32,000 nucleotides of DNA from contig NC_021219.1 in NCBI RefSeq assembly GCF_000392435.1, forward strand, positions 870,001-902,000. The letters are read 5' to 3'. Below are positions 1-22,599 of the stretch, piece by piece. Origin of the DNA: Candidatus Saccharimonas aalborgensis (GTDB lineage: Bacteria; Patescibacteriota; Saccharimonadia; Saccharimonadales; Saccharimonadaceae). The translations under genes and the position numbers were made by a program. The notes under the pieces are model-generated. The model was given only the letters and a program-made list of their open reading frames with translations. It did not search any database and was not told the origin of the DNA. The stretch's first letter is position 1. The number at the start of each line of letters is the position of its first letter.

Positions 1-669
1 ACCGGTCTCGGCATCGACCGACAGCGGGTCGTACGACTCGAAGACGGCATTGAGGACCGACTGCAAGTTCTTGGTCACCAGGGCATCCCTGATGTTCTCG
101 AACGTGCGGTAGTTCTGGAACAGCCCATCGACCGCCGTCTCCTTGGCCTGCCACTTGACGTACATGTTGGCGCAGGCCACGATTTGGTGCGCGATGCGCA
201 CCTGGATGCAGCCCTCGTTGAAGGCGGCTCCGGTGGGGCGGTTGTGCGTGTCGGTCTGGATGGCACCGTCCATCAGAGTGACATCCTGCCACGGTGCCTT
301 GAAGTGAGGGCCGTTGGACATGGAGCTGGTGGGCGCGCCGAGGGTGGTGACCACACCGATGTCCTTGGTGGGGACGATGACGAAGGTGGAGAAGAACAGC
401 ATGATCGCGGCGAGACCCGCGAGTGCCACACTGCCGTACCTCGTGACCTTGCCGGTGATGGCCTGGGTGCTGGTGTCCGGACGCTGGGGCTGCAATTCGT
501 GGAAGTAAAGCCCGCGGTTCTCTGCAGCGTCACGCCGCGAGCGCCAGTCGGCCAGCTCCTTCTTGTAATTGTCTTCGATGCCGCTGGCATCGTCGCTGTT
601 CTTTCGCGCATAGATGCGCGTGCCGATTGCGGCAAGGAGCAGCAACGCGACAACGATGGTTTCGATCAT
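1..669 (-). CDS. SPFH/band-7 (prohibitin-like) membrane protein, first 223 codons; continues past the left edge; GC-rich segment 1
   Basis: Hand translation of the minus strand from ATG (rc of 667-669) gives MIETIVVALLLLAAIGTRIYARKNSDD...KVTRYGSVALAGLAAIMLFFSTFVIVPTKDIGVVTTLGAPTSSMSNGPHFKAPWQDVTLMDGAIQTD... This is a TM segment followed by a typical SPFH-domain entry. There is no stop before position 1, which is why it is missing from the ORF track. Third codon positions are almost all G/C. Track ORFs 184..672(+) and 273..653(-) are other frames of the same GC-rich DNA. Confidence 0.6.
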   Translation of the reverse strand, partial: MIETIVVALLLLAAIGTRIYARKNSDDASGIEDNYKKELADWRSRRDAAENRGLYFHELQPQRPDTSTQAITGKVTRYGSVALAGLAAIMLFFSTFVIVPTKDIGVVTTLGAPTSSMSNGPHFKAPWQDVTLMDGAIQTDTHNRPTGAAFNEGCIQVRIAHQIVACANMYVKWQAKETAVDGLFQNYRTFENIRDALVTKNLQSVLNAVFESYDPLSVDAETG

Positions 670-714
670 TGACAGTCTCTCTGCGACGGGTTTGGGCTCC
701 CGAATCGCACACCA

Positions 715-733
715 CTATCAAGCCAGTTGATAG
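715..733. promoter_or_regulatory. Perfect 7-5-7 palindrome CTATCAA-GCCAG-TTGATAG in the 5' leader of the SPFH gene (operator-like)
   Basis: Read directly from the sequence. It lies between the promoter at 864-836 and the start codon at 669. Confidence 0.3.
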
Positions 734-835
734 CAAGGTGCGACTCGGGATAATTCAGTAGTAAATTGATTCCTAGCTTGTCAAGCGCGAGGGTTGCTCG
801 CACTATGCACGCGTGTAGGCGTGACATCGTTGCAT

Positions 836-864
836 ATTATAGCAAATTATAGTTAAAAAGTCAA
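836..864 (-). promoter_or_regulatory. Near-consensus sigma70-type promoter TTGACT-17-TATAAT reading toward the SPFH gene
   Basis: On the minus strand: -35 TTGACT (rc of 859-864), 17-nt spacer, -10 TATAAT (rc of 836-841). It sits in AT-rich DNA divergent from pyrH. Confidence 0.45.
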
Positions 865-886
865 TACGTTTTCCAGTGGTCACACC

Positions 887-895
887 TGCTATACT
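887..895 (+). promoter_or_regulatory. Extended -10 TGCTATACT placed 6 nt before the pyrH ATG (leaderless geometry)
   Basis: TGCTATACT at 887-895, ATG at 902, and no Shine-Dalgarno sequence between them. Confidence 0.45.
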
Positions 896-901
896 AAGCT
901 C

Positions 902-1618
902 ATGTATAAACGAATCTTACTCAAACTTTCAGGCGAACAACTACAGGGCTCTCACGAGAGCGGATTTGATACTGAGCGTGCCGTGTGGATCGCTGGACAG
1001 CTCAAACAAGCCCTCGCGACAGGGGTACAAATCGTCATCATGGTTGGTGGTGGCAATTATGCGCGTGGAGCGCAGCTTGCTGATGACAAAATACAGCGCA
1101 TCACTGGGGATTATGTCGGTATGCTGGCCACACTTATGAATGCGCTGACACTGGCTGATGTATTCAATAGCGAGGGCGTCGATGCGCGAGCACTGAGCAA
1201 TATCGAGGCGAATCAGCTTGTTGACCAATTTACCCACCGTCGAGCGGTGAGCCATCTCGATAAACACCGGGTCGTGATCGTGGCGGGCGGAACTGGGCGG
1301 CCGTTCCTCACGACCGATACGGCTGCGGTCAATCTCGCACTAGAGTTACAATGTGATGTTGTAGTCAAGACAACGAAGGTTGACGGTGTCTATACCGCAG
1401 ACCCGGCTCTCGACACCACAGCTACCAAATATGAGCATCTCAGTTACGATGAAGTCATCGCTAACCCCTCTATCACCGTCATGGACAAGGCGGCAATCGG
1501 TCTCGCGCTTGAGCAGCACATTCCTATCGTGATCTGTGATCTCCTGACGGAGGGAAATATAGCCCGTGCAGCTCGTGGCGATACTGTCGGTACACTCATA
1601 GGTGAAAAAATGGCATGA
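902..1618 (+). CDS. pyrH: UMP kinase
   Basis: 238 aa. KRILLKLSGE, VGGGN and DGVYTADP are typical amino-acid-kinase / UMP kinase motifs. The stop overlaps the next gene's start (ATGA). Confidence 0.93.
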   Translation: MYKRILLKLSGEQLQGSHESGFDTERAVWIAGQLKQALATGVQIVIMVGGGNYARGAQLADDKIQRITGDYVGMLATLMNALTLADVFNSEGVDARALSNIEANQLVDQFTHRRAVSHLDKHRVVIVAGGTGRPFLTTDTAAVNLALELQCDVVVKTTKVDGVYTADPALDTTATKYEHLSYDEVIANPSITVMDKAAIGLALEQHIPIVICDLLTEGNIARAARGDTVGTLIGEKMA

Positions 1619-2460
1619 AAGCGATATCACCAACCTTGAGCGTCATTGTCTGCGCGTATAATGAAGCCGATACGATTAAGCCTTGTCTATCATCACTTAT
1701 GGAGCAACGAAAGGATATAGATGAGATTATTGTCGTCGACAATAACTCGACCGACGATACTGTCGCTATCATCAAGAAACATTTTCCAGATATCACTGTC
1801 GTCCATGAGTCAGAACAGGGATTGATACCGGCTCGAAATACCGCTTTTGACCGTGCTACGGGTATGGTTATGGCGCGCGTTGATGCTGACGCAAAGATAT
1901 TGCCAGGCTGGGCGCACGCCATAAAGCAACATTTTGCTTCGCACCCGGAGCTTTGGGCTGCTACCGGCACGGTATATTACTACGATGCTCCCCTACGGCA
2001 GCTCGTAGCAACATTGTCGATATTTTTCACGAGTACCTCAAACCGACTAACGGGAACCGCTACATTATATGGGTGCAACATGGCTGTCACGCAAAAAGCG
2101 TGGCGGGCCGTACGGAAGATTGCCTCCACTAAGCCAAGGATCATGGAAGATCTTGATCTTGCTCTCGCTATCTCAGAAAAGGGCGGTAAGATCGACTATA
2201 TTCGTGATATGCAGATCGAAGCATCGATTCGTCGTCTGATGAATACGCCCTTACTATATGCCAAGTACAATTTTCAGTGGCTACGCACCTACTGGTTGCG
2301 TGACTATCACCTGCGCGCCTGTGTAATGGCGCCGGTTGCGTTCGTTTCTACCATTGGTCAGTTCGGTGTTGCGCCAATATTGCGCCGCTACAACCCTGAG
2401 ACAAAACGAATGCAATGGCGAGTTGCTCAAGGGCAAGAAGATCGGGTAGTTCCAGAGTAA
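1615..2460 (+). CDS. Family 2 glycosyltransferase
   Basis: 281 aa. N-terminus LSVIVCAYNEADTI...IIVVDNNSTDDT and DADA are GT2 (GT-A fold) signatures. Confidence 0.85.
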   Translation: MKAISPTLSVIVCAYNEADTIKPCLSSLMEQRKDIDEIIVVDNNSTDDTVAIIKKHFPDITVVHESEQGLIPARNTAFDRATGMVMARVDADAKILPGWAHAIKQHFASHPELWAATGTVYYYDAPLRQLVATLSIFFTSTSNRLTGTATLYGCNMAVTQKAWRAVRKIASTKPRIMEDLDLALAISEKGGKIDYIRDMQIEASIRRLMNTPLLYAKYNFQWLRTYWLRDYHLRACVMAPVAFVSTIGQFGVAPILRRYNPETKRMQWRVAQGQEDRVVPE

Positions 2461-3388: not shown

Positions 3389-3407
3389 AAAAACCGCATC
3401 ATGCGGT
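3387..3407 (-). terminator. Intrinsic terminator for minus-strand transcripts
   Basis: Minus-strand reading is ACCGCATGATGCGGT followed by TTTTTTT. On the plus strand the run is A7 before the hairpin, so it is oriented for the minus strand. Confidence 0.5.
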
Positions 3408-3424
3408 CAATGAGTTGTAGCGGG

Positions 3425-3468
3425 GTGACCCCGCCCCCAGAGCGTCGAGGCTCCGGAGACGGGGTCAC
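3425..3468 (-). terminator. GC-rich hairpin overlapping the stop codon of the small GC-rich ORF
   Basis: GTGACCCCG (3425-3433) pairs with CGGGGTCAC (3460-3468), a 9-bp perfect stem. There is no U-tract. Confidence 0.35.
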
Positions 3469-3638
3469 TTGCGGCCGAGCAGGTGGTCGAACAGCGTGAT
3501 GATCGCCTCTGCGATCGACACGAGCGCCGACCAGATGCTCTTGATGATGTCCGCCGCCATCGCGGGATTCTTGATGACGACATACACCCCAAACGCGATA
3601 ACCAACCACTTGATGGCAACCACTGCGCCTTTGGGCAC
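3465..3638 (-). CDS. Small hydrophobic (membrane) protein, 57 aa, GC-rich segment 2
   Basis: In-frame GTG at 3638 lies 8 nt after GGGAGG. Product is VPKGAVVAIKWLVIAFGVYVVIKNPAMAADIIKSIWSALVSIAEAIITLFDHLLGRK. Third codon positions are strongly G/C. The track ORF 3465..3704 extends upstream through the promoter, which is unlikely. Confidence 0.5.
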   Translation of the reverse strand: MPKGAVVAIKWLVIAFGVYVVIKNPAMAADIIKSIWSALVSIAEAIITLFDHLLGRK

Positions 3639-3675
3639 CGCACTCACCTCCCTTCCAGGTGTAGGTGAAGTCTGT

Positions 3676-3704
3676 ATTATACAACGAAAAAATGGATAAA
3701 TCAA
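3676..3704 (-). promoter_or_regulatory. Promoter TTGATT-17-TATAAT for the 57-aa ORF
   Basis: Minus strand: -35 is rc of 3699-3704, then an exact 17-nt spacer, then -10 as rc of 3676-3681. Confidence 0.45.
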
Positions 3705-3718
3705 ATAGAGACTTAAAT

Positions 3719-3828
3719 CTCACCCCCTCCCCACTCCAGACAACCGGCCCGCCGCTAACTAAATCAGCCTTCGCTCTTGGCGGGCCTTGGCCCATAAGGG
3801 CCAACTGTCTGTCGGAGGAGGGGGTGAG
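3719..3828 (+). repeat. Structured palindromic intergenic repeat, copy 1 (about 110 bp)
   Basis: CTCACCCCCTCCCCACTCCAGACAACCGGCCCGCC...GGCGGGCCTTGGCCCATAAGGGCCAACTGTCTGTCGGAGGAGGGGGTGAG. The terminal 12-nt arms are perfectly complementary, and there is an inner hairpin TTGGCCC-ATAA-GGGCCAA. It is nearly identical to 20960-21067 and to the reverse complement of 18915-19030. Confidence 0.85.
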
Positions 3829-3877
3829 ATCCAAGTAAGGCCATCTCAGACCTAGTGTGGTTGCAATAGCGAAGTAA

Positions 3878-4405: not shown

Positions 4406-4434
4406 TTGCTTTTTTGTAGTAATTATGCTATAAT
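4406..4434 (+). promoter_or_regulatory. Promoter TTGCTT-17-(TGC)TATAAT reading toward the 4731 ORF
   Basis: -35 at 4406-4411, 17-nt spacer ending in TGC, -10 at 4429-4434. Divergent from smpB. Confidence 0.45.
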
Positions 4435-4440
4435 GCTTTT

Positions 4441-4730
4441 TATCAGTGATGTGAGGTACAATATATCTCCCACTGCGAAGATTCCAAACGTGCTTCATGA
4501 CTCTTCTTGCGAGAGAAGCTGCCCTCTCCGATATGGTAGAACTAGCCAGCCGGCATCAAACGATTTGTTTGGTCTCGACTGGCTAGTCCCACCCGGATCC
4601 GGGACAAACCCTTTCGCTTCAAGAGTCGGAGGTTCCGGAACCTTTGACAACTCTCTCAGCGAAAGCAGCTTTACCTGCAGTACCCTCGCGACCACCGTGG
4701 CCGCGAGAACCTTCACGAAGGGAGCCAGCA
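4441..4730 (+). promoter_or_regulatory. Long (about 290 nt) multi-hairpin 5' leader or candidate structured RNA
   Basis: Five consecutive hairpins read by eye. They are 4503-4518 (CTTCT/AGAAG) and 4542-4586 (CTAGCCAG/CTGGCTAG with inner ATCAAAC/GTTTGGT). Then 4586-4605 (GTCCC/GGGAC), 4622-4654 (AGAG+TCGGAGGTT/AACCTTTGA+CTCT) and 4685-4707 (CTCGCG/CGCGAG) just before the SD. No known riboswitch motif was recognised. Confidence 0.3.
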
Positions 4731-5153
4731 ATGGCATTCGGAAACAAGGCCCGCATCGCCGCCCTCGAGGCCCGCAACGCCCAGCTCGAGCAGCTGTTCG
4801 GTCGCGCGGACGTCCGCCTGGACACCTACGGGCCCGAGCTCGCCGGCATCTTCGGTGACACCCCGACGGCTCACAGCGCCGGTCGCTGGACCTCGTCCAC
4901 GACCGTCCGCGACATCTACGGGATCAACGTGTCCAACGTGCCGGGCCGGGAGCAGGTCTCCTTCATGGCGATCAAGCACGCCGGCGCCGTCAAGCCGTTC
5001 GTCGTCTCGCTCCACCCGGGCGAGCACGTCGACTTCGACGCCAACGACTTCGCCGACCTCGAGGAGTGGGTCAACGCGGCCCGCACGGGCCAGACCCTCG
5101 ACCCCAACCGGCACGACCAGCGGGCGGCGAAGATGTTCAGCCTCGTCGGCTGA
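4731..5153 (+). CDS. Hypothetical protein, 140 aa, GC-rich segment 3
   Basis: ATG at 4731 lies 6 nt after GAAGGGAG. Product is MAFGNKARIAALEARNAQLEQLFGRADVRLDTYGPELAGIFGD... Hand-read codons end almost exclusively in G/C. The upstream part of track ORF 4644..5153 lacks an SD. Confidence 0.6.
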   Translation: MAFGNKARIAALEARNAQLEQLFGRADVRLDTYGPELAGIFGDTPTAHSAGRWTSSTTVRDIYGINVSNVPGREQVSFMAIKHAGAVKPFVVSLHPGEHVDFDANDFADLEEWVNAARTGQTLDPNRHDQRAAKMFSLVG

Positions 5154-5173
5154 CACATCTCGCTGAGAGAGCT

Positions 5174-5204
5174 GGTGGGGGCGCGCACGCTGTGCGCCCC
5201 CACC
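5174..5204 (+). terminator. GC-rich hairpin after the 4731 ORF
   Basis: GGTGGGGGCGC (5174-5184) pairs with GCGCCCCCACC (5194-5204), an 11-bp perfect stem. Confidence 0.5.
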
Positions 5205-5230
5205 ACTCTCGAACTAAAAAAATAGCAATA

Positions 5231-5261
5231 AAAAAAGAACGACCCACATGGGGTCTTTTTT
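5231..5261. terminator. Bidirectional intrinsic terminator between convergent GC-rich genes
   Basis: A7, then GACCC-ACATG-GGGTC, then T6. An A-run lies upstream and a T-run downstream, so it can work on both strands. It sits in AT-rich backbone-like DNA. Confidence 0.55.
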
Positions 5262-5299
5262 GTATAACAGAGAGAGTTGTTTGTAGCGATAGATTCCGC

Positions 5300-5342
5300 G
5301 TGAAGCGGGAGCCGGGGGCGTATCCCCCAGCTCCCGCTTCAC
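5300..5342 (-). terminator. Long GC-rich hairpin after the 231-aa ORF
   Basis: GTGAAGCGGGAGC (5300-5312) pairs with GCTCCCGCTTCAC (5330-5342), a 13-bp perfect stem, with inner GGGGG/CCCCC. It lies 14 nt past the stop at 5356. Confidence 0.5.
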
Positions 5343-5355
5343 ATGTGCGCTGGGG

Positions 5356-6051
5356 CTAGTCGAGCATGGTCTGGTAGGCCCGCGTGAGCTCGGCGTTGGC
5401 CAGCTCGACGAGCGCCTTGTAATCGGCGACGTCCCGCTCGTGGATGGCCACGAGCTTGGCATTCGCCTGCCGCTCGCGCGTCAGCGCCAGGCGGTCACGC
5501 CGCAGCTGCGCCGTCTGCTCGTCGAGCCAGCGCCCGACGTCCTCGGGTGTCTCGAGCCACTCGGGCAACTCGTCCCACTGGTACTTGCCACGCCGGAACA
5601 GCTTGCGCCACTCGCGCAGCTCGCGAGCGGTCCGGTTGAGCTCGTACTTGTGGTAGTTGAACTGGTGTCCGAGGTCGACGTTGCGTGCTTCGCGGGCGAG
5701 GCGTTCGAGCTCCCTGATGGCCTCCTGGTGCATCTGGAGCAGCTCGCCGAAAGCGACCGCCTGAGCGATCAGCTGGCGGTCGGCCTCGCTGCTGCCGTCG
5801 GCGGCATCGATGCGGATGCGCGCGATGCGGAGCAGCCCGTAGCGGAGCGCCACCTCATGGATGACGCTGCCAATGGCGGCAGCGCGGGGGAAGGCGGGGT
5901 TGAACGTCCCGTTGAAGCGGTAGTCGTTCAAGGCCTTGGCGATGAACCCATCGGGGCGGATCTCGCTGACGTACAGCGTGCTGTACATCGACATCGAGAT
6001 ACCACCGTCGTTCAGTTTGATGACGAACCGTGGCGGGAAGTTCCAACTCAT
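5356..6051 (-). CDS. Hypothetical protein, 231 aa, GC-rich segment 4
   Basis: ATG lies 8 nt after GGAGAGGAGG. The C-terminal half is rich in charged helical sequence (RELERLAREARN..., LRRDRLALTRERQ). No family was recognised by eye. Confidence 0.6.
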   Translation of the reverse strand: MSWNFPPRFVIKLNDGGISMSMYSTLYVSEIRPDGFIAKALNDYRFNGTFNPAFPRAAAIGSVIHEVALRYGLLRIARIRIDAADGSSEADRQLIAQAVAFGELLQMHQEAIRELERLAREARNVDLGHQFNYHKYELNRTARELREWRKLFRRGKYQWDELPEWLETPEDVGRWLDEQTAQLRRDRLALTRERQANAKLVAIHERDVADYKALVELANAELTRAYQTMLD

Positions 6052-6101
6052 GAAGTATGCCTCCTCTCCTGCTCGCAGTGACGGGGAATCCGTCAGGGGC
6101 T

Positions 6102-6158
6102 ACGAATCAGGAGCGGCAGCCATAGTCATAGACTCTATGACCACAACTCCTGATTCGT
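6102..6158 (-). promoter_or_regulatory. Nested inverted repeats in the 5' region of the 231-aa ORF
   Basis: Outer perfect 12-bp inverted repeat: ACGAATCAGGAG (6102-6113) with CTCCTGATTCGT (6147-6158). It encloses a perfect 8-1-8 palindrome GTCATAGA-C-TCTATGAC (6125-6141). Confidence 0.35.
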
Positions 6159-6174
6159 CTAAACTCTCTCTGTC

Positions 6175-6202
6175 AAAAAACAAGGGGCATGTGGTATGCC
6201 CT
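6175..6202 (-). terminator. Intrinsic terminator-like hairpin plus U-tract (minus strand)
   Basis: Minus-strand reading is AGGGCAT-ACCAC-ATGCCCC, then TTG, then TTTTTT. It lies downstream of the coiled-coil gene, but also downstream of the promoter-like site at 6239-6212. Confidence 0.45.
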
Positions 6203-6211
6203 CTCAAATAT

Positions 6212-6239
6212 ATTTTACAACAATAAGATTATTAGTCAA
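6212..6239 (-). promoter_or_regulatory. Promoter-like TTGACT-16-TAAAAT
   Basis: Minus strand: -35 is rc of 6234-6239, 16-nt spacer, -10 is rc of 6212-6217. Confidence 0.35.
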
Positions 6240-6256: not shown

Positions 6257-6592
6257 TCAGCCATCGTATTTCAGGTGTACCCCTGCTTGGTCGGCAAGCT
6301 GAAAGATCCAGCGCTCCAAGCGTGCTTGCTGGTGTGCCTGGACTTTCGTCTCCTGGATGAGTGTTTCGATGCGAGACATGTGGGTATCGAGGATGCCATA
6401 GATTCGGTTTACATCTGATTTCAGTTCTGAGACATCTGATTTAAGCTCAGCTACATCTGATTTAAGCTCAGCTACATCTGATTTAAGCTCAGCAATATTG
6501 TCTTCAATTTTATCAAAGCGCTTATCGACGCTATCGGCAAATTGCGAGAGTGTCGAGAGGATTTCTTCGTTGGTAACCTGAGCTTTGACCAT
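6257..6592 (-). CDS. Coiled-coil protein with AELKSDV heptad tandem repeats, 111 aa
   Basis: Start chosen at MVKAQVTNEEIL... (ATG is rc of 6590-6592). The upstream part of track ORF 6257..6883 runs through a GC-rich hairpin element. The protein contains AELKSDV x3 plus SELKSDV. Composition is backbone-like. Confidence 0.6.
   Translation of the reverse strand: MVKAQVTNEEILSTLSQFADSVDKRFDKIEDNIAELKSDVAELKSDVAELKSDVSELKSDVNRIYGILDTHMSRIETLIQETKVQAHQQARLERWIFQLADQAGVHLKYDG
6411..6494. repeat. 21-bp tandem repeat, 4 units (first unit degenerate), in frame within the coiled-coil gene
   Basis: ACATCTGATTTAAGCTCAGCT at 6432-6452 and 6453-6473, and again at 6474-6494 with the last base changed to A. 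The unit at 6411-6431 is divergent. Confidence 0.85.
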
Positions 6593-6663
6593 GTACCCAT
6601 TGTAGCATGTCTCGTCATATGCGTGCTCGGTGTTAGGATTTTGCGGGTTAATTGCACTCACTA

Positions 6664-6741
6664 CGGAAAGGCCGCCCCGACGGGGTGGCCTGAGTGCTCT
6701 ACACGAACTGATGTCCGGAGCGGCCTTTCCGTGGGGGCGGC
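6664..6741. other. GC-rich multi-hairpin element with mutually exclusive pairings
   Basis: CGGAAAGGCCGC (6664-6675) pairs perfectly with GCGGCCTTTCCG (6720-6731). GCCGCCCC (6671-6678) also pairs with GGGGCGGC (6734-6741). A local hairpin GGCCGCCCC-GAC-GGGGTGGCC (6670-6690) competes for the same bases. Confidence 0.4.
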
Positions 6742-6758
6742 GTGATGAAGTGCCTCTA

Positions 6759-7016
6759 CTACGCGTATTTTTTGCGTAGCGTGGGCCGGTTGCGAAACGC
6801 CAGCTCTTTGTCGAGGTGATACAGCAGGGCGAGTTCCAGGACAAGGTTGCTGACGCAGTCGAGGTACTCAGCTTTGGGATCACCGTAGCCCTCCCTCATG
6901 AGCTGGCGGAGCTTGGTTTCGAGCCCCGACATAGCTAGCATCGCATTCGCCCTACGCTCTAGGAGCTCATCCATGCTAAGGGCGGCGAAGCCAGTGGTGG
7001 TGCGAGCGTCGGTCAT
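6759..7016 (-). CDS. Hypothetical protein, 85 aa, GC-rich segment 5
   Basis: Start at MTDARTTTGFAALSMDELLERR... (ATG is rc of 7014-7016), 6 nt after AAGGGAG. The upstream part of track ORF 6759..7094 would run through the promoter. Confidence 0.5.
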   Translation of the reverse strand: MTDARTTTGFAALSMDELLERRANAMLAMSGLETKLRQLMREGYGDPKAEYLDCVSNLVLELALLYHLDKELAFRNRPTLRKKYA

Positions 7017-7039
7017 ACCGACTCCCTTCTCATGTAACG

Positions 7040-7056
7040 GTCTCTCGACGAGAGAC
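7040..7056 (-). promoter_or_regulatory. 8-1-8 perfect palindrome (5'-UTR hairpin or operator) GTCTCTCG-A-CGAGAGAC
   Basis: Read directly. It lies between the -10 at 7066-7071 and the SD of the 85-aa ORF. Confidence 0.35.
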
Positions 7057-7065
7057 GCTAAGGTA

Positions 7066-7094
7066 ATTTTACAATAATAAGCGAAAAGTATCAA
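7066..7094 (-). promoter_or_regulatory. Promoter TTGATA-17-TAAAAT for the 85-aa ORF
   Basis: Minus strand: -35 is rc of 7089-7094 and abuts the stop codon of the upstream gene. A 17-nt spacer follows, then -10 as rc of 7066-7071. Confidence 0.45.
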
Positions 7095-7931: not shown

Positions 7932-7980
7932 TTGTCACCTCCTCTTGGTAGTAGCTTACCTTAATGATAGCAGACTGATA

Positions 7981-10009: not shown

Positions 10010-10015
10010 GGAATT

Positions 10016-13250: not shown

Positions 13251-13295
13251 TAGTACGTTAGTAACAAATTAATAGTAAGGAGAAATATAACAATT

Positions 13296-13505: not shown

Positions 13506-13514
13506 GTTTTTTCT

Positions 13515-14057: not shown

Positions 14058-14059
14058 CT

Positions 14060-14443
14060 GTGAACACGAGACTCTCGCGTCGCAAGCTTGCGCTCTATGT
14101 CGCTGATGGCATTGCTGTCGATGGAGAGCTCAGTCGGCGTATCGAGGAAGTAGCGGCGTATTTGATTGACAGTAAACGTCTCAGAGAGGCAGAGCTTGTC
14201 GTCCGGGCTATCGAGGACGCGCTTGTTGAGGCTGGCACAGTAGTCACTACAGTTACCACCTCTGGACCGCTGATCGAAGATATGACAGACGCGATCAAGA
14301 AGCTGACGGGGGCTCACACTGTTGCTATCCGCGAGAGAGTTGATCCTCAGCTGTTGGGCGGCGTCATCATAGAGACACCCGGACAGATGTTGGACGCAAG
14401 TGTTCGAAGTAAACTAATGGCCCTTCGTCGGGCAAAATTGTAA
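14060..14443 (+). CDS. atpH: F1 ATP synthase subunit delta (short form)
   Basis: GTG start 8 nt after AGAGGTG. C-terminal ...[26 protein letters not shown] matches the OSCP/delta C-terminal motif (GG-x-x-x-x-G-x-x-x-x-D-x-S). Operon position fits. Confidence 0.8.
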
Positions 14444-14466
14444 AAACGAGTGAAAGGAATCATTTG

Positions 14467-16005
14467 ATGGCTGATCTAGCAGTGACAGAATTATCAAAAA
14501 CCCTTCGCGACGCGATTGCAAAGCTGGAAACGAGCGATAGGCTCGAGACAGTTGGTATCGTGACTCGCGTCGGCGACGGAGTGGCTTGGGTGCACGGGTT
14601 GGCGGATGCCGGCTATAGTGAAGTGCTCCAGATCGAAACTGCGCACAGCGGTGTCGTAGAGGCGTTTGCGCTTAATCTCATGGAAGATGAAATCGGTGCG
14701 GTGCTTTTGGGAAGTGACCAGGGTGTTGCCGCAGGTGATCGAGTAACACTCAAGGGTGAAATTTTGTCAGTTCCGGTCGGTACTGAGCTGCTTGGCCGCG
14801 TTGTCAACCCTCTGGGTGAAGCACTTGATGGTGGACCGGCGATTAAATCAACCGAACGATTGCCAGTTGAGCGTGAAGCAGTCGGCGTCATGGGCCGTAA
14901 GCACGTGCATGAGCCGCTGATGACGGGTATCATGGCTATTGATGCCATGTTTCCTATCGGACGGGGCCAGCGCGAGCTGATTATTGGAGATCGTCAGACT
15001 GGCAAGACTGCTATTGCTGTTGACACGATGATCAACCAAGCGAAGCAACAGAGTGGCGTGGTGAACGTCTACGTTGCTGTCGGTCAAAAACTGAGTAAGG
15101 TTGCTCGTCTTGTCGAGACCCTGAAACGCGAGGGGGTCATGGACCAAACGATTGTGGTGGCAACTGGTCCGAGTGATCCAGCAAGCCTCCTCTATCTCGC
15201 TCCATATGCGGGTACCGCGATGGGCGAATATTTCCGCGACAAGGGTGAACATGCGCTCATGATCTACGATGACCTCACAAAGCACGCAGTCGCGTACCGT
15301 CAGATGTCACTCCTCCTTCGCCGTCCACCGGGACGTGAAGCCTTTCCGGGTGATGTATTTTATCTTCACTCACGACTTCTCGAGCGTTCAAGCAAGCTCA
15401 GTGATGAGCTTGGCGCCGGCTCGCTCACTGCCCTGCCGATCATTGAGACACAGGCGGGAGACATCTCGGCCTATATCCCCACAAACGTGATTTCAATCAC
15501 CGATGGTCAGATTTTTATGGAGACCGACCTCTTTTATCAGGGTATTCGTCCTGCTATCTCGGCTGGACTCTCAGTGAGTCGTGTTGGTGGTGACGCCCAG
15601 ACAAAGGCCGTCAAGAGTGTTTCGGGTCACCTCAAGCTTGGCCTCAGCCAGTTCCGAGAGCTTGCCAGTTTCGCACAGTTTGGGAGCGACCTCGACGAGG
15701 CTACCAAAGCGCAGATTGAGCGTGGTCAACGGTTGACCGAACTCCTGAAGCAGCCACAATATCAGCCGATGAGCGTGTGGGAACAGTGTGCCAGTATCTT
15801 TACCGTGAGTGAAGGTCTGTTTGACCACGTACCGGCAAATAAAGTGAAGGATGCACAAAAAGCCCTCCTCACCCGTCTCTGGACAGATGAGAAGAAAGTC
15901 ATGCAGGAGCTCAATAAAGGCACCGACAAACTCGAAGCAGATAGCTCAACGGGCAAAGCAATTGCAAAGCTAGCAAAATTAGTTGCGAAAGGGTTTGAGG
16001 GCTAA
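14467..16005 (+). CDS. atpA: F1 ATP synthase subunit alpha
   Basis: [11 protein letters not shown] (P-loop), [12 protein letters not shown] and [23 protein letters not shown] at 14467; the track start at 14464 is a TTG one codon upstream. Confidence 0.95.
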
Positions 16006-16007
16006 TA

Positions 16008-16379
16008 ATGACACGTCGCGCTCGCGTCGAATTGGGTTACCGGACAGATTGTGACCTACTATCTAGGCCCGTTGTTCAGGAACAGCTACCATTTGACGTT
16101 ACTGCTGATATAAGACCTGCTCCTGAAGATGACGGTGAATCTTTCGCTTATGATATAAGGCAAATGATTGCCGAAACAGAAGCTCAATTAGCACGAGCAG
16201 AGGTTGATGGGAGAATCGACCGTGCGTGGCGAGGACTTTCGCGGGTTGCTCAATTAAGAATACTGCTCGATGCCGGTATTGATCCCTTTGCAAAATCACC
16301 ACCCCTAAGGATGAGTAGTGATACGGAAGAGGAAGCGCGGTATACACGAGCGCTTCTAGACGAGGCTCGTAATGGCTAG
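16008..16379 (+). CDS. Unknown 123-aa ORF between atpA and atpG
   Basis: It starts 2 nt after the atpA stop and overlaps the atpG start by 8 nt. It uses noticeably more A/T-ending and rare codons (ATA, AGA, AGG, CTA, TTA) than the flanking atp genes. No family was recognised. Confidence 0.45.
   Translation: MTRRARVELGYRTDCDLLSRPVVQEQLPFDVTADIRPAPEDDGESFAYDIRQMIAETEAQLARAEVDGRIDRAWRGLSRVAQLRILLDAGIDPFAKSPPLRMSSDTEEEARYTRALLDEARNG

Positions 16380-17237: not shown

Positions 17238-17238
<1 letters not shown>
16372..17238 (+). CDS. atpG: F1 ATP synthase subunit gamma
   Basis: MASTQQLKSRIRSVKSTKQITKAMQMVAASKMRRAQ at the N-terminus and ...ARQSAITQELAEISGGAEA at the C-terminus. Confidence 0.92.
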
Positions 17239-18903
<1,665 letters not shown>

Positions 18904-18914: not shown

Positions 18915-19030
18915 GCCCCAAGACCCTCCTCCGACAGACAGTTGGCCCTGATGGGCCAAGGCCCGCCAAGAGCGAAGGCTGATTCAGTTAGCGGCGGGCC
19001 GGTTGTCTGGAGTGGGGAGGGTGTTGGGGC
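18915..19030 (-). repeat. Structured palindromic intergenic repeat, copy 2 (inverted orientation)
   Basis: The reverse complement matches copies 1 and 3 through the core. The terminal arms are changed on both sides to GCCCCAAGACCCTCC / GGAGGGTGTTGGGGC, which are still complementary apart from one mismatch. It starts 12 nt after the atpD stop. Confidence 0.85.
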
Positions 19031-19046: not shown

Positions 19047-19075
19047 TTGACTTTATACAACAATAGTGATATAAT
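19047..19075 (+). promoter_or_regulatory. Consensus-type promoter TTGACT-17-TATAAT
   Basis: -35 at 19047-19052, exact 17-nt spacer, -10 at 19070-19075. Confidence 0.5.
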
Positions 19076-19139
19076 ATAAGAGACGGCCTGTTTAATCGAA
19101 CGAGCCGACCAACAAGCCTCATGTAAGGAGGTGGTTCGC

Positions 19140-19466
19140 GTGCTCAACCACTGGTTGGCGCGTGTGCTCCCAGGAGGGCGCGAGCCCGGAGATCCCTGGT
19201 GGGTCTTCCGGGACGCAGACGGTCAGGACAACGACTGGTGGCCCCAGTTGGTGTCGCTGGGGTGCTACCCCCTGGTCTTCTTCGTTCTCTTCGGGTGGTG
19301 GGGGGTGCTGCTCGGCCTGGTGGCCGCAGTCGGCACGCTCCTCTACTGGGGAGCACTTCTGAGCGTCGCGGTGCTGGTGATCTACGTCCTGCTGTCCCTG
19401 TTTCTGGGGTGGCTGTGGGCACTGGTCATCGTCGCACTGCTCGTTTGGTGGTTCATCTACCGCTAG
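19140..19466 (+). CDS. Trp-rich multi-TM membrane protein, 108 aa, GC-rich segment 6
   Basis: GTG at 19140 lies 8 nt after AAGGAGG. Product is VLNHWLARVLPGGREPGDPWWVFRDADGQDNDWWPQLVSLGCYPLVFFVLFGWWGVLLGLVAAVGTLLYWGALLSVAVLVIYVLLSLFLGWLWALVIVALLVWWFIYR. Other long ORFs here (19119..19526-, 19144..19422- and others) are alternative frames of GC-rich DNA. Confidence 0.55.
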   Translation: MLNHWLARVLPGGREPGDPWWVFRDADGQDNDWWPQLVSLGCYPLVFFVLFGWWGVLLGLVAAVGTLLYWGALLSVAVLVIYVLLSLFLGWLWALVIVALLVWWFIYR

Positions 19467-19496
19467 ACGAGCAGTGTCGCTGTGTACGCTCACTAG

Positions 19497-19533
19497 GGTG
19501 AGAGTGGCAGCCGATCCCGGCTCCACTCTCGCC
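19497..19533 (+). terminator. GC-rich hairpin after the membrane ORF
   Basis: GGTGAGAGTGG (19497-19507) pairs with CCACTCTCGCC (19523-19533): 11 bp including one G-T pair. Confidence 0.45.
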
Positions 19534-19560
19534 CGCGCAGTACAAGATTTCCTCTTAGCA

Positions 19561-19584
19561 CTCTCGCATCGGGCGAGAGTTTTT
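19561..19584 (+). terminator. Intrinsic terminator directly upstream of atpC
   Basis: CTCTCGC-ATCGG-GCGAGAG followed by TTTTT. Confidence 0.55.
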
Positions 19585-19592
19585 GGTATGAT
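19584..19592 (+). promoter_or_regulatory. Extended -10 TGGTATGAT placed 9 nt before the atpC ATG
   Basis: Read directly. It overlaps the end of the terminator's T-run. Confidence 0.4.
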
Positions 19593-19601
19593 AGAACTAG
19601 T

Positions 19602-20027
19602 ATGGATTTTGAACTAATTACCCTCGGTGGCAGTAAAGTCAACGAGCAAGTGTACGAGGTGATTTTGCCAACGGCAGACGGAGAGATCGCGGTATTCCCT
19701 CACCATGAACCGCTGGTCAGTGTTGCATCGCCAGGTGTGATCGCGGTGCGCCGCGACAAACAGCATAGCGATGACCGCATGGAGTTTTTTGCGGTCAGTG
19801 GCGGCATCATCGAGATCGGCAATAATCGTGTTCGCGTGTTGGTTGATGAAGCTGAGCACGGCGACGATATTGTCGAGGCAGAGACACAGGCCGCACTTGA
19901 CCGAGCGCTTAAGATGCGCGATAGTGCAACAGACCAAGTTGAACTCGAAAAAGCCCATCAGTTGGTTGATCGCCACGCTGTTCGCCTCAAGGTAGCTGAT
20001 CTCCATCGGCGCCGGCGAAAGTTATAG
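19602..20027 (+). CDS. atpC: F1 ATP synthase subunit epsilon
   Basis: 141 aa. The N-terminal beta-sandwich pattern (VILPTADGEIAVFPHHEPLVSVASPGVIAV) plus a C-terminal helical hairpin fit epsilon. It is the last gene of the operon. Confidence 0.88.
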   Translation: MDFELITLGGSKVNEQVYEVILPTADGEIAVFPHHEPLVSVASPGVIAVRRDKQHSDDRMEFFAVSGGIIEIGNNRVRVLVDEAEHGDDIVEAETQAALDRALKMRDSATDQVELEKAHQLVDRHAVRLKVADLHRRRRKL

Positions 20028-20049: not shown

Positions 20050-20928
20050 ATGCCTCGGACAGTACATCTCGGGAGATTGAGTGAACGGACTTGGCCAGGG
20101 AGTGTGTCGGCTGACGATGTGTATGTCGATATTGCCACCATTGCGTCATCGCTTGATGAGTATTATGTACCAGTAAATCCAAAGGCAAAGACTCGCTGTA
20201 TCGATGGTCGGCACGATCCGGCGCTCGATGAAGGAATGCTTGGGCCGCAGGTGCCCGGCGGTGCGATCGGAGGAGCTCTTGCCTATCGGCTGGGAGTTGA
20301 TAAGGATGACCTGACACGAGGAACGTTTTATACAGATACCGAGACGATGATCGACTCGTATCTACGACTTGGTCTGGCACCAGGCGGGCACCGTGATAAT
20401 CGTGAGCATGAGCACGGTGTTGGCTGTGGTGCGATTGACGGCATGGATGCAATTCTCGACTGTCTCTTGGACTCGGGCTTGATCGAGGACAACAAACGCT
20501 TAGTCAGAGCGATTCTCGATACGCGCTTTGATCGGGATCGTTACTTGCGGGTGCTTGGTGCGGGCACGGTGCTCGAGAGCCACGCTGATCAATATTTTGC
20601 TGGGCGGGATGAGATATTTACGGTGCTGGAGAAGAAATCTCCCGGTAGTGTGTCAGTGCTCGAGGGGCACCACAATGAAAAATTACTTATCGTTAATTTT
20701 GTCCCAAGCACAACACTTGCATCAAATCGATTTGCGCGAGATCACGGCGGGTTGCAAGCATTCGGTTATGATATATGGCGAAGTAAACAGTTGGCGCGTA
20801 TGCTGTTGCCGCTTGACTCCCAAGATGAGGACCGTGATCGCTTCATTATGGCGCGAGTTATGGTTACGATTGCAACGCTAATGGCGCTTACTGATGGATC
20901 ACAGCAGGTGTTGTTTCGATTGCCTTAA
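20050..20928 (+). CDS. Hypothetical protein, 292 aa, with C-I-D-G-R and H-G-V-G-C-G motifs
   Basis: The ORF has backbone-like composition. Its motifs are reminiscent of beta-carbonic-anhydrase-type metal sites but do not match exactly (see findings). Confidence 0.55.
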   Translation: MPRTVHLGRLSERTWPGSVSADDVYVDIATIASSLDEYYVPVNPKAKTRCIDGRHDPALDEGMLGPQVPGGAIGGALAYRLGVDKDDLTRGTFYTDTETMIDSYLRLGLAPGGHRDNREHEHGVGCGAIDGMDAILDCLLDSGLIEDNKRLVRAILDTRFDRDRYLRVLGAGTVLESHADQYFAGRDEIFTVLEKKSPGSVSVLEGHHNEKLLIVNFVPSTTLASNRFARDHGGLQAFGYDIWRSKQLARMLLPLDSQDEDRDRFIMARVMVTIATLMALTDGSQQVLFRLP

Positions 20929-20959
20929 CAAATGTCGAGCCCCGGACGTTAACCCGACT

Positions 20960-21067
20960 CTCACCCCCTCCCCACTCCAGACAACCGGCCCGCCGCAAAC
21001 TGACTAGCCTTCGCCTTGGCGGGCCTTGGCCCATCAGGGCCAACTGTCTGTCGGAGGAGGGGGTGAG
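20960..21067 (+). repeat. Structured palindromic intergenic repeat, copy 3
   Basis: Arms and stems are the same as copy 1. Differences are confined to the central loop and to one base in the inner hairpin loop (ATCA versus ATAA). It lies between convergent genes (stops at 20928 and 21075). Confidence 0.85.
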
Positions 21068-21074
21068 ATTCAAG

Positions 21075-22094
21075 TTAACATACTTGCCTATCGAGAATAC
21101 TTCTGACCTCTTCAGTTGTCGTGCAATTCATCAATTCTACCCGCAAGTCGCTCGCGCCGTCGAAGTCACGGATGTAGATTTTGAAAAAGCGCTTTAGCGT
21201 TTCGAAGGGTCGGCTAGTCTGTTGGTAGTAGCGGTCGTATTCATCGAGATGAAATCGCAGTAATTCGATAAGTTTATCATGTTGATCACCGCTCGCGTCG
21301 TCGCCTGCGCGCTGCTTGGCAGCTGGTTCTTGACGGTCGAATTCTTGCTTGCTTGGTTTGTCGGTACGGTCACTAAACGCATAGGGATTGGTAAAAATAC
21401 CTCGGCCGATCATGATACCGTCGATGCCATACGTATCATAAAATTCAATACCGTGAACACGATCACGCACATCGCCGTTGATCACAAGAAGTGTATCGGG
21501 TGCTAGTTCATCACGCAGTTTCTTTATCTCTGGGATTAGCTCGAAGTGCGCGGGAACCTTGCTCATCTCTTTTTTTGTGCGCAGGTGGACGGTCAGTACG
21601 GCGATGTCTTGTCTTAGTAAGCCCCCCAGCCATTCGCGCCACTCGTCGACATTACTATAGCCGAGGCGCGTTTTCACACTGACTGGTAGGCCTCCAGACT
21701 TTGCTGCCTTGATGATCGCCCAGGCTTTTTCTGGGGTGCGAATCATCCCGGCACCACCACCGGCTTTGACGGCGGACTGGTCGGGGCATCCCATATTGAT
21801 ATCAATCCCATCGTATCCGAGCTGACGGCAGTACCCACTCATAGCCGCCATGGCTTCGGGATCACTCCCCCATAGTTGAGCAACAATCGGCGATTCGTCG
21901 TCAGTCTTGATTAGTCGACCGCCGATGGCTTTGTCGCCTGCTCGGTACCACCCCATCGCGTTAGTAAACTCAGTAAAAAACACGTCTGGCTGACCCGCAC
22001 GCGTGATAACATGGCGAAATACGACATCTGTCACCGCCTCCATAGGAGCGAGGATGAAAAAAGGTCGAGGAAGGGTGTGCCAAAATGTCGACAT
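21075..22094 (-). CDS. tRNA-dihydrouridine synthase
   Basis: 339 aa. FILAPMEAVTDVVFRHV, DINMGCP, VSVKTRLG and LTVHLRT are Dus-family TIM-barrel motifs. GCTATAAT lies 7 nt before the ATG. Confidence 0.85.
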   Translation of the reverse strand: MSTFWHTLPRPFFILAPMEAVTDVVFRHVITRAGQPDVFFTEFTNAMGWYRAGDKAIGGRLIKTDDESPIVAQLWGSDPEAMAAMSGYCRQLGYDGIDINMGCPDQSAVKAGGGAGMIRTPEKAWAIIKAAKSGGLPVSVKTRLGYSNVDEWREWLGGLLRQDIAVLTVHLRTKKEMSKVPAHFELIPEIKKLRDELAPDTLLVINGDVRDRVHGIEFYDTYGIDGIMIGRGIFTNPYAFSDRTDKPSKQEFDRQEPAAKQRAGDDASGDQHDKLIELLRFHLDEYDRYYQQTSRPFETLKRFFKIYIRDFDGASDLRVELMNCTTTEEVRSILDRQVC

Positions 22095-22123
22095 GATAGT
22101 TATTATAGCGAATAATGAAGAGC

Positions 22124-22188
22124 GGGTTCACCGCCAGGGACTTGTGTGTCCCGGCGGTGAACCCGTAGTAGTACCCCCTAGGGGGTAC
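22124..22188 (-). terminator. Two strong GC-rich hairpins immediately 3' of the tRNA
   Basis: GGGTTCACCGCCAGGGAC (22124-22141) pairs with GTCCCGGCGGTGAACCC (22148-22164) with one bulged A. This is followed by the perfect 18-nt palindrome GTACCCCCTAGGGGGTAC (22171-22188). Confidence 0.45.
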
Positions 22189-22284
22189 TGGAGCCCCATA
22201 CAGGAATCGAACCTGTGCGTGTGCCGGTGTTGCTGGCATTCCACGACTTGGCAAGCCGCAGCTCTACCACTGAGCTAATGAGGC
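22189..22284 (-). tRNA. tRNA-Gly(GCC)-like gene with encoded CCA and an abnormal 26-nt variable region
   Basis: Hand-folded reverse complement. Acceptor GCCTCAT / ATGGGGC (one G-U pair) and D arm GCTC-AGTGGTA-GAGC. Anticodon arm GCGGC-TTGCCAA-GTCGT (two G-U pairs, anticodon GCC). Variable region GGAATGCCAGCAACACCGGCACACGC (can form TGCCAG/CCGGCA). T arm ACAGG-TTCGATT-CCTGT, discriminator T, then CCA. Confidence 0.7.
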
Positions 22285-22288
22285 CGGT

Positions 22289-22319
22289 CGGGCCGACAAC
22301 TTGTACAGCCGTCGGCCCG
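22289..22319 (-). terminator. GC-rich hairpin between the Cys-rich ORF and the tRNA
   Basis: CGGGCCGAC (22289-22297) pairs with GTCGGCCCG (22311-22319), a 9-bp perfect stem. Confidence 0.4.
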
Positions 22320-22376
22320 CTGTCCTACCCTATCATGCTGTTGAGACGATCGCAAGCATGAGCAAGTAGGAGGTGG

Positions 22377-22523
22377 TCAGATGTCAATCATGCCCTGACG
22401 AGTGGGCGGCTGCTTGCAACGGGAACAGATGACCCCGTTCTTGTCGCAGCCGCTACAGCCCTTACTGTCACACGGCTTGTGCGGCCAGTGCGGGTAGGCG
22501 TGCGGACACGGGACTCGTGGCAT
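22377..22523 (-). CDS. Cys-rich 48-aa protein (two CxxC pairs, zinc-ribbon-like), GC-rich segment 7
   Basis: Not in the ORF track (<60 aa). Hand translation gives MPRVPCPHAYPHWPHKPCDSKGCSGCDKNGVICSRCKQPPTRQGMIDI. The ATG lies 6 nt after GGGAGGTG. Confidence 0.45.
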   Translation of the reverse strand: MPRVPCPHAYPHWPHKPCDSKGCSGCDKNGVICSRCKQPPTRQGMIDI

Positions 22524-22570
22524 AGTTCACCTCCCTATGGGTGTCGAGAGCCTTGAGTATGACCGATGTT

Positions 22571-22599
22571 ATTCTACTATTTTTTTGCGAAATTGTCAA
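22571..22599 (-). promoter_or_regulatory. Promoter TTGACA-17-TAGAAT overlapping the last codons of the helicase gene
   Basis: Minus strand: -35 is rc of 22594-22599 (inside codons L-I-D-N-F), 17-nt spacer, -10 is rc of 22571-22576. Confidence 0.4.

Follow-up and report, generated by a model that had tools for sequence, protein, structure and literature searches.

How does a bacterial chromosome of about 50% G+C come to hold sharply bounded, single-gene segments that are much richer in G+C and use actinobacterial-style codons? The question is raised by a window of 32,000 nucleotides (nt) from Candidatus Saccharimonas aalborgensis (the whole stretch of DNA that was analysed), in which seven such segments, here termed cassettes 1 to 7, carry the open reading frame (ORF) products P1-P7. 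Saccharibacteria and the Patescibacteria in general represent a large and poorly understood part of bacterial diversity, and their dealings with hosts are an open question; cultivated relatives live attached to high-GC Actinobacteria. The backbone around the cassettes contains pyrH, two family-2 glycosyltransferases, smpB, an AAA ATPase, a glutaredoxin, an RCC1-repeat protein, the F-type ATP synthase operon, dus, a UvrD-type helicase-nuclease, a type IV pilin-like protein, a tRNA methyltransferase and an Nramp transporter; the genes at 7981-16005 have precomputed housekeeping annotations. An earlier reading made from the letters of this DNA alone (the sequence-only reading) had assigned this backbone to Saccharibacteria, which proved correct; a scan of genome collections and a named protein give the species as Ca. 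S. aalborgensis, a tiny bacterium of wastewater. The answer to which we give about even confidence is that the cassettes are moron-like accessory units residing in recombination hotspots, whose host-type codon usage is actively maintained.

The cassettes differ from the backbone mainly in silent positions. The GC of the seven spans is 0.62, 0.62, 0.69, 0.66, 0.60, 0.63 and 0.61, against 0.497 in the remaining window; thus the contrast described by the sequence-only reading stands, while its figure of about 70% is true only for 4690-5205, the other spans lying at 60-66%. The edges are sharp in a 200-nt GC profile, as it had stated, and its hand counts of 43, 33 and 28 G+C per 60 nt are exact. 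Each span holds one ORF with third codon positions mostly G or C (G+C at third positions, GC3, of 0.86, 0.84, 0.95, 0.91, 0.74, 0.85 and 0.76 for P1-P7, i.e., 0.74-0.95, against 0.31-0.60 in backbone genes), so that the GC3 values of the window form two separate groups, with none between 0.60 and 0.74. In every one of the seven ORFs GC3 exceeds that of first positions (GC1), and GC1 that of second positions (GC2). When pooled, cassettes and backbone have GC1 of 0.61 and 0.578, GC2 of 0.445 and 0.417, and GC3 of 0.847 and 0.505; nearly all of the excess is therefore at third positions, and amino-acid usage is about the same in both. The codon choice is actinobacterial in style (ATC 0.91, TTC 0.88, TAC 0.91, AAG 0.86, GAG 0.83), and at four-fold sites C exceeds G, both far above A and T, with CTC/CTG, GTC and GCC favoured. 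The leaders have a GC of 0.52-0.60 and the promoter regions of 0.31-0.47. An eighth unit of 166 amino acids (aa), with GC3 0.83, lies just past the left end of the window. Translational selection for high expression was considered and rejected, since ribosomal protein genes show low or average GC3. The codon adaptation index (CAI), calculated against ribosomal and ATP-synthase genes, is uninformative here, because it does not separate cassettes from backbone.

The cassettes are genuine chromosomal genes of Ca. S. aalborgensis. The exact 231-aa P4 (6051-5356, minus strand) is found in unchanged gene context in two closed genomes, CP065015.1 (1.007 Mb) and CP064959.1 (0.979 Mb), which are 99.5-99.7% identical to the window, in a UBA metagenome-assembled genome (MAG; contig identity ~100%), and in assemblies that come from different projects (ENA, JGI and Logan). 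The segment junctions recur in the two closed long-read genomes and in at least eight other independent assemblies, and the cassette alleles co-vary with strain background. In the comparisons below, the labels L001-L114 denote the loci compared; L011-L013 and L017 are related strains (L017 being the species representative), and L026 is UBA1944, a different species.

The predicted layout of the units is uniform. Cassette 1 (minus strand) comprises the P1 coding sequence (1-669), which encodes the N-terminal 223 of the 351 aa of an SPFH/Band-7 membrane protein and exits at the window start, and, at 670-864, a 159-nt leader (GC 0.53) behind a promoter-like site, TTGACT-17-TATAAT with TG at 864-836 (11/12 match), whose GC together with the 60 nt upstream is 0.31. 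Cassette 2 (3392-3704, minus strand) has a promoter-like site at 3704-3676, GGGAGG, a GTG start and a coding sequence at 3638-3465 for the hydrophobic P2, called at 57 aa in independent assemblies too, followed by two 7-nt hairpins (3420-3434 and 3393-3407) and a T-tract terminator (3408-3392). Cassette 3 (4406-5262, plus strand) consists of TTGCTT-17-TATAAT with an extended -10 (4406-4434), a 289-nt structured leader (4442-4730), the P3 coding sequence (4731-5153, 140 aa), a 15-nt hairpin (5173-5205) and a shared bidirectional T-tract terminator (5241-5255). Cassette 4 (5290-6239, minus strand) has a promoter-like site at 6239-6212, GAGGAGG, the P4 gene and a 19-nt hairpin (5342-5300), and cassette 5 (6655-7094, minus strand) a promoter-like site at 7094-7066 that abuts the stop codon of a 278-aa gene, the P5 coding sequence (7016-6759, 85 aa) and a structured 3' region (6650-6760). 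Cassette 6 (19047-19585, plus strand) is placed between atpD and atpC, with TTGACT-17-TATAAT (19047-19075), AAGGAGG, the P6 coding sequence from a GTG at 19140 to 19466, a hairpin (19496-19534) and a T-tract terminator (19560-19580). In cassette 7 (22285-22599, minus strand) TTGACA-17-TAGAAT (22599-22571) overlaps the 3' end of the helicase gene and is followed by GGGAGG, the P7 coding sequence (22523-22377) and a 9-nt perfect hairpin (22319-22289), directly upstream of tRNA-Gly.

The Shine-Dalgarno sites claimed by the sequence-only reading were correct on inspection, whereas two other claims stood in part. Of the sigma70-like promoters, one of which it had assigned to each segment, six are the top-scoring matches in the scanned 28 kb (10-11/12), and the P3 site falls below the -35 rule of the scan, matching only 3/6 positions there, with the extended -10 TGcTATAAT. 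GC-rich hairpins are present after each ORF, but not all are perfect: stems of 8 nt and 9 nt are, two further stems have 7 nt, and those of 15, 19 and 12 nt are paired at 93, 95 and 92%, the P5 3' structure being larger (z = -4.2). These hairpins lack a U-tract, and several units then carry a second terminator with a T-tract; GC-rich hairpins without U-tracts are typical of Actinobacteria. The P3 leader has a strong secondary structure (z = -5.4) and shows 97-100% conservation between strains, although the gene that follows it is swapped; it could represent a cis-regulatory RNA or a separate small RNA. It has no Rfam match, and a transfer-messenger RNA beside smpB was rejected, as neither ARAGORN nor Rfam finds one at 4442-4730. 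Past the terminator of cassette 6, at 19585-19604 (plus strand), TGGTATGAT stands only 9 nt before the atpC ATG, with no Shine-Dalgarno site, which suggests that the insertion may have created a leaderless atpC transcript. The tRNA-Gly(GCC) directly downstream of P7 (22189-22284, minus strand, 96 nt) has an apparent variable arm of ~27 nt, unusual for a glycine tRNA; the same long form is present in L017, and other species have tRNA-Cys there.

Where do such genes come from? The sequence-only reading had proposed recent capture from a high-GC donor, i.e., the actinobacterial host or its phages, at terminator-proximal intergenic sites behind native promoters, the genes being still unameliorated. 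The actinobacterial-style codons and the hairpins without U-tracts both favour such an origin, and so do the relatives of P1 outside Saccharibacteria. P1 matches Pfam Band_7 at E=3.8e-7 for the part within the window and at 7.8e-12 at full length as taken from L001 (PF01145: 46 bits against a cut-off of 23.6), carries a hydrophobic stretch, IMLFFSTFVIV, ahead of that domain, and matches phrog_200 at E=1.7e-26. Its phage matches comprise 345 records at 39-50% identity, all but one (344/345) from phages of Actinobacteria (Mycobacterium, Streptomyces, Gordonia, Rhodococcus); relatives in Cellulomonas and other Actinobacteria reach about 50% identity, and the best non-Saccharibacterial relatives about 41-57%. 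For P1, ancestry in a high-GC host or host-phage gene pool is plausible, but for the six non-SPFH genes no donor lineage with close homologues was identified in the collections searched.

However, the closest relatives of P1 are other Saccharibacteria (62-75% identity). Three of them occupy the same site as here, next to pyrH (or a kinase in its place) and with Exo_endo_phos downstream, in backbones with GC3 0.56-0.68, and two others occupy different positions in backbones of about 0.41-0.46. In a neighbour-joining tree the Band-7 proteins of Saccharibacteria group as a single clade (60-76% mutual identity), and the six members with contigs looked up are all in Saccharibacteria-type gene neighbourhoods; the one outgroup contig examined, that of the nearest outgroup found, is phage-like, with 47% GC and a Band-7 copy of GC3 0.46. 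In every Saccharibacterium examined the GC3 of the Band-7 gene is 0.80-0.91, against backbones of about 0.41-0.68, and decay towards the composition of the recipient is not seen among the orthologues. Between orthologues, 48-63% of the four-fold sites differ (expectation at saturation, 61%), and yet these sites are 86% G+C, with C<->G swaps of 22-42%; in the adjacent pyrH and Exo_endo_phos genes saturation is equal and G+C is 56-72%. Since these sites are saturated and still so rich in G+C, the high GC3 of P1 is an equilibrium state rather than an unameliorated relic. The sequence-only reading had itself held that the same GC-rich genes at orthologous positions in distant low-GC relatives would tell against transfer. 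Such orthologues exist for segment 1, and recent capture fails at least for P1, while the foreign-looking codon style and the actinophage-type family of P1 stand.

Persistence of raised GC3 extends, less strongly, to a few families outside the window, which also argues against recent capture. In a survey of 74 Saccharibacteria loci, made with a crude ORF caller so that part of the list is spurious, 70 of 1621 ORFs had GC3 at least 0.2 above the locus median. These ORFs are shorter, with GC1 and GC2 unchanged, and more often have a predicted membrane helix (49 vs 31%) and a promoter-like site ahead (45 vs 20%). A PlsC-like family exceeds the locus median by +0.21 to +0.29 at 27-43% identity, a membrane-anchored hydrolase family by +0.09 to +0.23, and a 130-aa family by +0.24 to +0.35; the three families overall keep their raised GC3 at 26-43% identity, against 0.00 +/- 0.03 for the atpA and dus controls. 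A further ~75 kb of Ca. S. aalborgensis-like sequence contains 6 GC3-rich ORFs among 85.

The variation between strains bears on the same question. Backbone identity to L011-L013 and L017 is 95-99%, and the promoters, leaders, first codons and terminators of the cassettes are 97-100% identical between strains. In L011-L013 the body of P3 is replaced by a 135-aa allele with 30% aa identity behind the common MAFGNK start, and P5 shares its first 14 aa with the L011 protein and only 50% of the remainder. Because these P3 and P5 variants have promoter, leader and first codons in common, exchange among Saccharibacteria is indicated rather than independent capture. The aa identity between strains is 77-79% for P4, 75% for P7 (L017) and 92% for P6; one P4 allele (P0001) is a mosaic of two others. 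Other strains carry an extra 226-aa GC3-rich membrane gene at 7089, and L013 has two GC3-rich genes, of 207 aa and 595 aa, in place of P1. The ratio of nonsynonymous to synonymous substitution rates (dN/dS) is 0.16-0.6 in four cassettes against 0.01-0.26 in most backbone genes, from which it follows that the cassette ORFs are real genes under purifying selection that is weaker than on the backbone, and dS itself is 0.23-0.68 against 0-0.2 for most backbone genes. Among P4 alleles, polarised third-position changes were 13 GC>AT and 7 AT>GC, these being small numbers.

The variable contents are found at particular sites: beside pyrH, beside smpB, between atpD and atpC, and beside a tRNA. The atpD-atpC gap is at most 40 nt in 42 of 57 species; empty sites in relatives, which the sequence-only reading had named as something to compare, thus exist, the atpD-atpC site being empty in most other species. 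In L026, a unit between atpD and atpC consists of TTGCTT-17-TATAAT, AAGGAGG, a gene for a 105-aa membrane protein (GC3 0.78) and two hairpins, and the protein, with a DDWW motif, is weakly similar to P6. Beside smpB the same locus has unrelated GC-rich orphan ORFs, and P5 shows no similarity to a GC-rich ORF there. Since units of L026 occupy the same sites, these sites behave as shared hotspots. P2-P7 lack homologues in the other species compared, yet P1 is syntenic elsewhere and a similar unit is present at atpD-atpC in L026. Both the emptiness of this site in most species and hotspot contents that differ by strain and species, as constant turnover predicts, can be claimed for recent capture. 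Other gaps of the operon are filled as well, since small fast-evolving ORFs occupy the atpA-atpG (16008-16379, plus strand) and atpG-atpD (17238-17537, plus strand) gaps here and in many of L017-L096 (Saccharimonadales). The 123-aa atpA-atpG ORF has GC3 0.34, below the backbone, with an unrelated 176-aa ORF in its place in L017, and the atpG-atpD ORFs have a recurring terminal G-(G/E)-N-D-(D/E) motif, which probably results from overlap with the atpD start region.

The product types given by the sequence-only reading were borne out, i.e., SPFH/Band_7 for P1, small hydrophobic proteins for P2 and P6 (the latter of 108 aa, with three predicted membrane helices), a Cys-rich protein for P7 (48 aa, 6 Cys) and P3-P5 without family. 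No family was found for P2-P7 or related cassette proteins in Pfam, PHROGs, NCBIfam or PADLOC, and sequence searches of the PDB with P3 and P4 gave chance-level matches only. Fold searches were ruled out for these two, because the AlphaFold models are too poor (predicted local distance difference test score, pLDDT, of 59 for P4 from six sequences and 45 for P3 from a single sequence). Among 79 other Saccharibacteria species-level loci with conserved order around the ATP operon no homologue of P2-P7 is present, which would be expected from recent capture. The P4 family consists of five clusters (79-93% identity), of which those looked up share genomic context, and a profile search of 1.84 billion representative proteins from public genomes and metagenomes found no P4 relative outside this species. 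IMG/VR has no match for P3, P4 or the 166-aa gene, GenBank phages and PLSDB plasmids none for P2, P3, P5, P6, P7 and five related cassette proteins, and GenBank phages none for P4. The P4 profile search and the searches of IMG/VR, phages and plasmids speak against a recent donor, as does the match of GC1, GC2 and amino-acid usage to the backbone.

The absence of an integrase or transposase, noted earlier, was confirmed by a Pfam scan of the ORFs without prior annotation, and that of a clear target duplication between cassettes likewise. Phage structural or integration genes were not found around the cassettes, the neighbours being pyrH, glycosyltransferases, smpB, ATP synthase, dus, tRNA-Gly and the UvrD-type helicase; P7 alone abuts a tRNA. 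A diversity-generating retroelement was rejected, as the window has no template-like second cassette copy and the scanned ORFs no reverse transcriptase. Taking both sides together, recent capture of the whole set appears unlikely, although it keeps an appreciable share of the probability.

How, then, could the moron-like units be distributed and maintained? Each would be an insulated unit in which a consensus-type, AT-rich promoter is followed by a leader bearing a strong Shine-Dalgarno site, an ORF with G/C-ending codons, a GC-rich hairpin and sometimes a T-tract terminator, and the units would occupy a few integrase-free intergenic hotspots between conserved genes. Homologous recombination in the flanks, which are conserved, would exchange alleles between strains and also between related species, in accord with the mosaic alleles, and natural transformation would help in such exchange; natural competence is known in this phylum. 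High GC3 would be kept by a force acting on silent sites, either mRNA/codon selection or biased gene conversion, and would not be a leftover of recent transfer. The protein types (an SPFH scaffold, small hydrophobic proteins and a Cys-rich mini-protein), together with the diversification, suggest that several products, such as the SPFH anchor and the small hydrophobic proteins, may have roles in the envelope, in contact with the host or in defence, and that they may be under diversifying selection. Among the possible forces, mRNA/codon selection would account for the focus on third positions and for non-coding parts that are AT-rich or of intermediate GC. Biased gene conversion agrees with the way the sites behave as hotspots, but neither with leaders of intermediate GC nor with the invariance of P2. 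Continual fresh imports suit those cassettes that are orphans restricted to the species, whereas Band-7 and the remaining conserved families do not agree with them.

Several observations weigh against this reading of maintained, moron-like units. P2-P5 and P7 occur in this species alone and might still have been imported recently from phages that have not been sampled, and the persistence of GC3 covers P1 and the families outside the window, not P2-P5 and P7; the spurious part of the survey list also counts here. The leader GC is compatible with codon-level selection and equally with foreign ORFs behind native leaders. The GC1/GC2/GC3 profile of P1 is also that of the Band-7 genes of actinophages, so composition alone leaves room for phage ancestry. 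P2 is unchanged between strains, hence not every cassette is hypervariable. The predicted promoters and terminators rest on consensus matches only, and directly after the P4 promoter-like site, within the leader, stands a terminator-like hairpin (6201-6185) with a T-run, which renders the role of that site uncertain: it may be an attenuator or may not drive P4, and the hairpin may alternatively be the terminator of the upstream coiled-coil gene.

An endogenous compositional process is a further candidate. Frequent recombination at the hotspots with GC-biased gene conversion would drive weakly constrained silent sites to G/C or, in a variant of the same account, the equilibrium would be GC-biased throughout and masked in core genes by selection for A/T-ending codons. 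Mosaic alleles and presence/absence polymorphism at the hotspots, the raised dS of the cassettes, the almost wholly third-position excess and the equilibrium-like four-fold sites would all be expected from it, and ribosomal protein genes have the lowest GC3 in L103 (0.32-0.42). It is at odds with leaders and promoter regions that lie in the same hotspots and are not GC-rich, with P2 and the SPFH gene, of which the former is invariant and the latter not especially variable, at GC3 0.84-0.9 in both, and with the bimodality of GC3. Moreover, reported bacterial conversion effects amount to only a few percent. The endogenous process, in both its forms, is thus rather improbable.

Could host-type codons be functional as such? 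In this concept the cassette mRNAs would be decoded with host-type resources, or G/C-rich mRNAs would be selected for stability or escape from RNases. In a recent preprint, uptake of host RNA is reported for a cultivated Patescibacterium, and parasite codon usage is described as 'complementary' to that of GC-rich hosts (Katayama et al., 2026, preprint, 10.64898/2026.06.21.733656); the cassettes would be the exception to that rule. Both studies concern the same organisms and the same axis of G/C- versus A/T-ending codons, with selection on silent sites proposed, but the preprint describes genome-wide avoidance of host-type codons, whereas the cassettes use them. An actinobacterial host has been reported for a wastewater Saccharimonadia lineage in another 2026 preprint. 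The units are monocistronic, have the best promoter and Shine-Dalgarno matches of the window, are bracketed by stable structures and pass the trait on within families, all of which is in line with a function of the codons. On the other hand, they are scattered and not on a transferable element, CAI does not set them apart, and several products resemble ordinary epibiont membrane proteins; this explanation is therefore very unlikely. Slimmer still is the chance of a stronger form, in which the cassettes would yield monocistronic mRNAs of a class defined by its codons. These would be translated either in the actinobacterial host, reached through the cell-cell conduit by which host RNA enters the epibiont, or in the epibiont only during inflow of host RNA or tRNA, with products that would serve as host-contact-specific effectors or envelope factors. 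In a bold variant, leader with Shine-Dalgarno site, ORF and hairpin being GC-rich and the promoter lying outside, captured host transcripts rather than host DNA would be the source. An artefact (chimeric assembly, binning contamination or an engineered construct), the first and last of which the sequence-only reading had considered and for which the compositional contrast is the sole argument, has a negligible probability, because P4 and its context recur in closed genomes and unrelated assemblies, with identical junctions in the two long-read genomes, the UBA MAG and the ENA, JGI and Logan assemblies.

The literature search found no paper describing such a gene class in Saccharibacteria; McLean et al. 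found no strong sign of Actinomyces-to-TM7x transfer (McLean et al., 2020, PMC7427843). Several known systems offer partial parallels. The moron concept goes back to Hendrix and Juhala and the lambdoid phages HK97 and HK022. Like phage morons, the cassettes are single genes located between conserved genes, of deviant composition and variable between relatives, and they may likewise have their own sigma-70-type promoter and factor-independent terminator; in all seven, promoter matches with hairpins or T-tracts are predicted, P4 with the reservation given above, and the spans have a GC of 0.60-0.69 against 0.497. Unlike morons, they are carried by the chromosome of an ultra-small epibiont with no phage genes around, one unit splits the ATP synthase operon, and the odd composition has been long maintained in at least one family. 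Integrase-free transfer hotspots of naturally transformable bacteria resemble the present sites in being few, core-flanked and variable in content, without integrases or transposases, and the mosaic alleles fit recombination in the flanks; here, however, the contents are single genes with uniform expression architecture and a common codon style, mostly orphans with no detectable outside source. O-antigen, capsule and pilin loci are also hypervariable between conserved flanks, their atypical GC persists, and foreign origin versus selection is debated for them, but in the cassettes GC is higher, not lower, and single genes replace clusters. The actinophage Band-7 genes (phrog_200) share the compositional profile of P1 at 39-50% identity, whereas the Saccharibacterial genes form their own clade on chromosomes at conserved positions. 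Integron cassettes, too, are variable single-ORF units followed by a hairpin-forming element; those described here have a predicted promoter each and are dispersed, the scanned ORFs include no integrase, and their 3' hairpins share no sequence, so there is no common attC-like site.

If host-style silent codons are long kept by an accessory class, base composition is no simple transfer clock in these genomes, and an unrecognised layer of selection or biased recombination would act on silent sites. The cassettes contradict the recently proposed rule that these parasites avoid host-type codons. Being strongly signalled, insulated and strain-variable, they provide a short, testable list of candidate host-interface or defence genes, and the ATP synthase operon evidently tolerates an insert predicted to be independently transcribed.

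A GC-rich repeat of ~115 nt accompanies some of the cassettes. Its ends are inverted repeats, TCTCACCCCCTCC...GGAGGGGGTGAGA, its fold is Y-shaped (z about -8), and it behaves like a miniature inverted-repeat transposable element. Copy 1 (3718-3836, plus strand) lies 14 nt upstream of the -35 box of cassette 2 and is absent from the smpB site of L012; copy 2 (18924-19024, minus strand) lies 22 nt upstream of the -35 box of cassette 6 and has the opposite orientation in L017; copy 3 (20959-21075, plus strand), between a 292-aa gene and dus, has no adjacent cassette. Further copies are found in L107 (~4900-5010), L112 (~8860-8970), L113 (~9330-9450), L111 (~771) and L114 (~1611). In at least five loci the repeat precedes the -35 box of a GC3-rich cassette by 10-25 nt, and three copies lack an adjacent cassette. 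Its core is not in IMG/VR, and Rfam gives no match at the gathering threshold.

Some neighbouring genes deserve a mention. The region 7095-9579 (minus strand) encodes an AAA ATPase resembling IetA/TRIP13-type ATPases (PADLOC, E=1.6e-24), next to the 278-aa protein without family, part of which (7151-7400) is strain-variable and directly beside a cassette hotspot; the two genes may form a defence locus. Between cassettes 4 and 5, at 6257-6592 (minus strand), a gene that is not GC-rich encodes a 111-aa coiled-coil protein with tandem 21-nt (AELKSDV) repeats (6410-6514), and a paralogue with EKIDxRF repeats lies past the left end of the window (L001 18088-18510). The RCC1-repeat gene (9929-11926, plus strand) contains internal repeats of ~147 nt, and most of the gene (9985-11941) is lacking in L017, by deletion or assembly collapse. 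The 292-aa protein at 20050-20928 (plus strand) matches the Pfam cadmium carbonic anhydrase repeat PF18484 just above the cut-off (E=6.6e-8) and has homologues in only some related species. Finally, a tandem pair of paralogous genes at 25864-28613 (minus strand) encodes membrane proteins that have poly-glycine N-termini and contain Tim44-like and DUF3137 domains.

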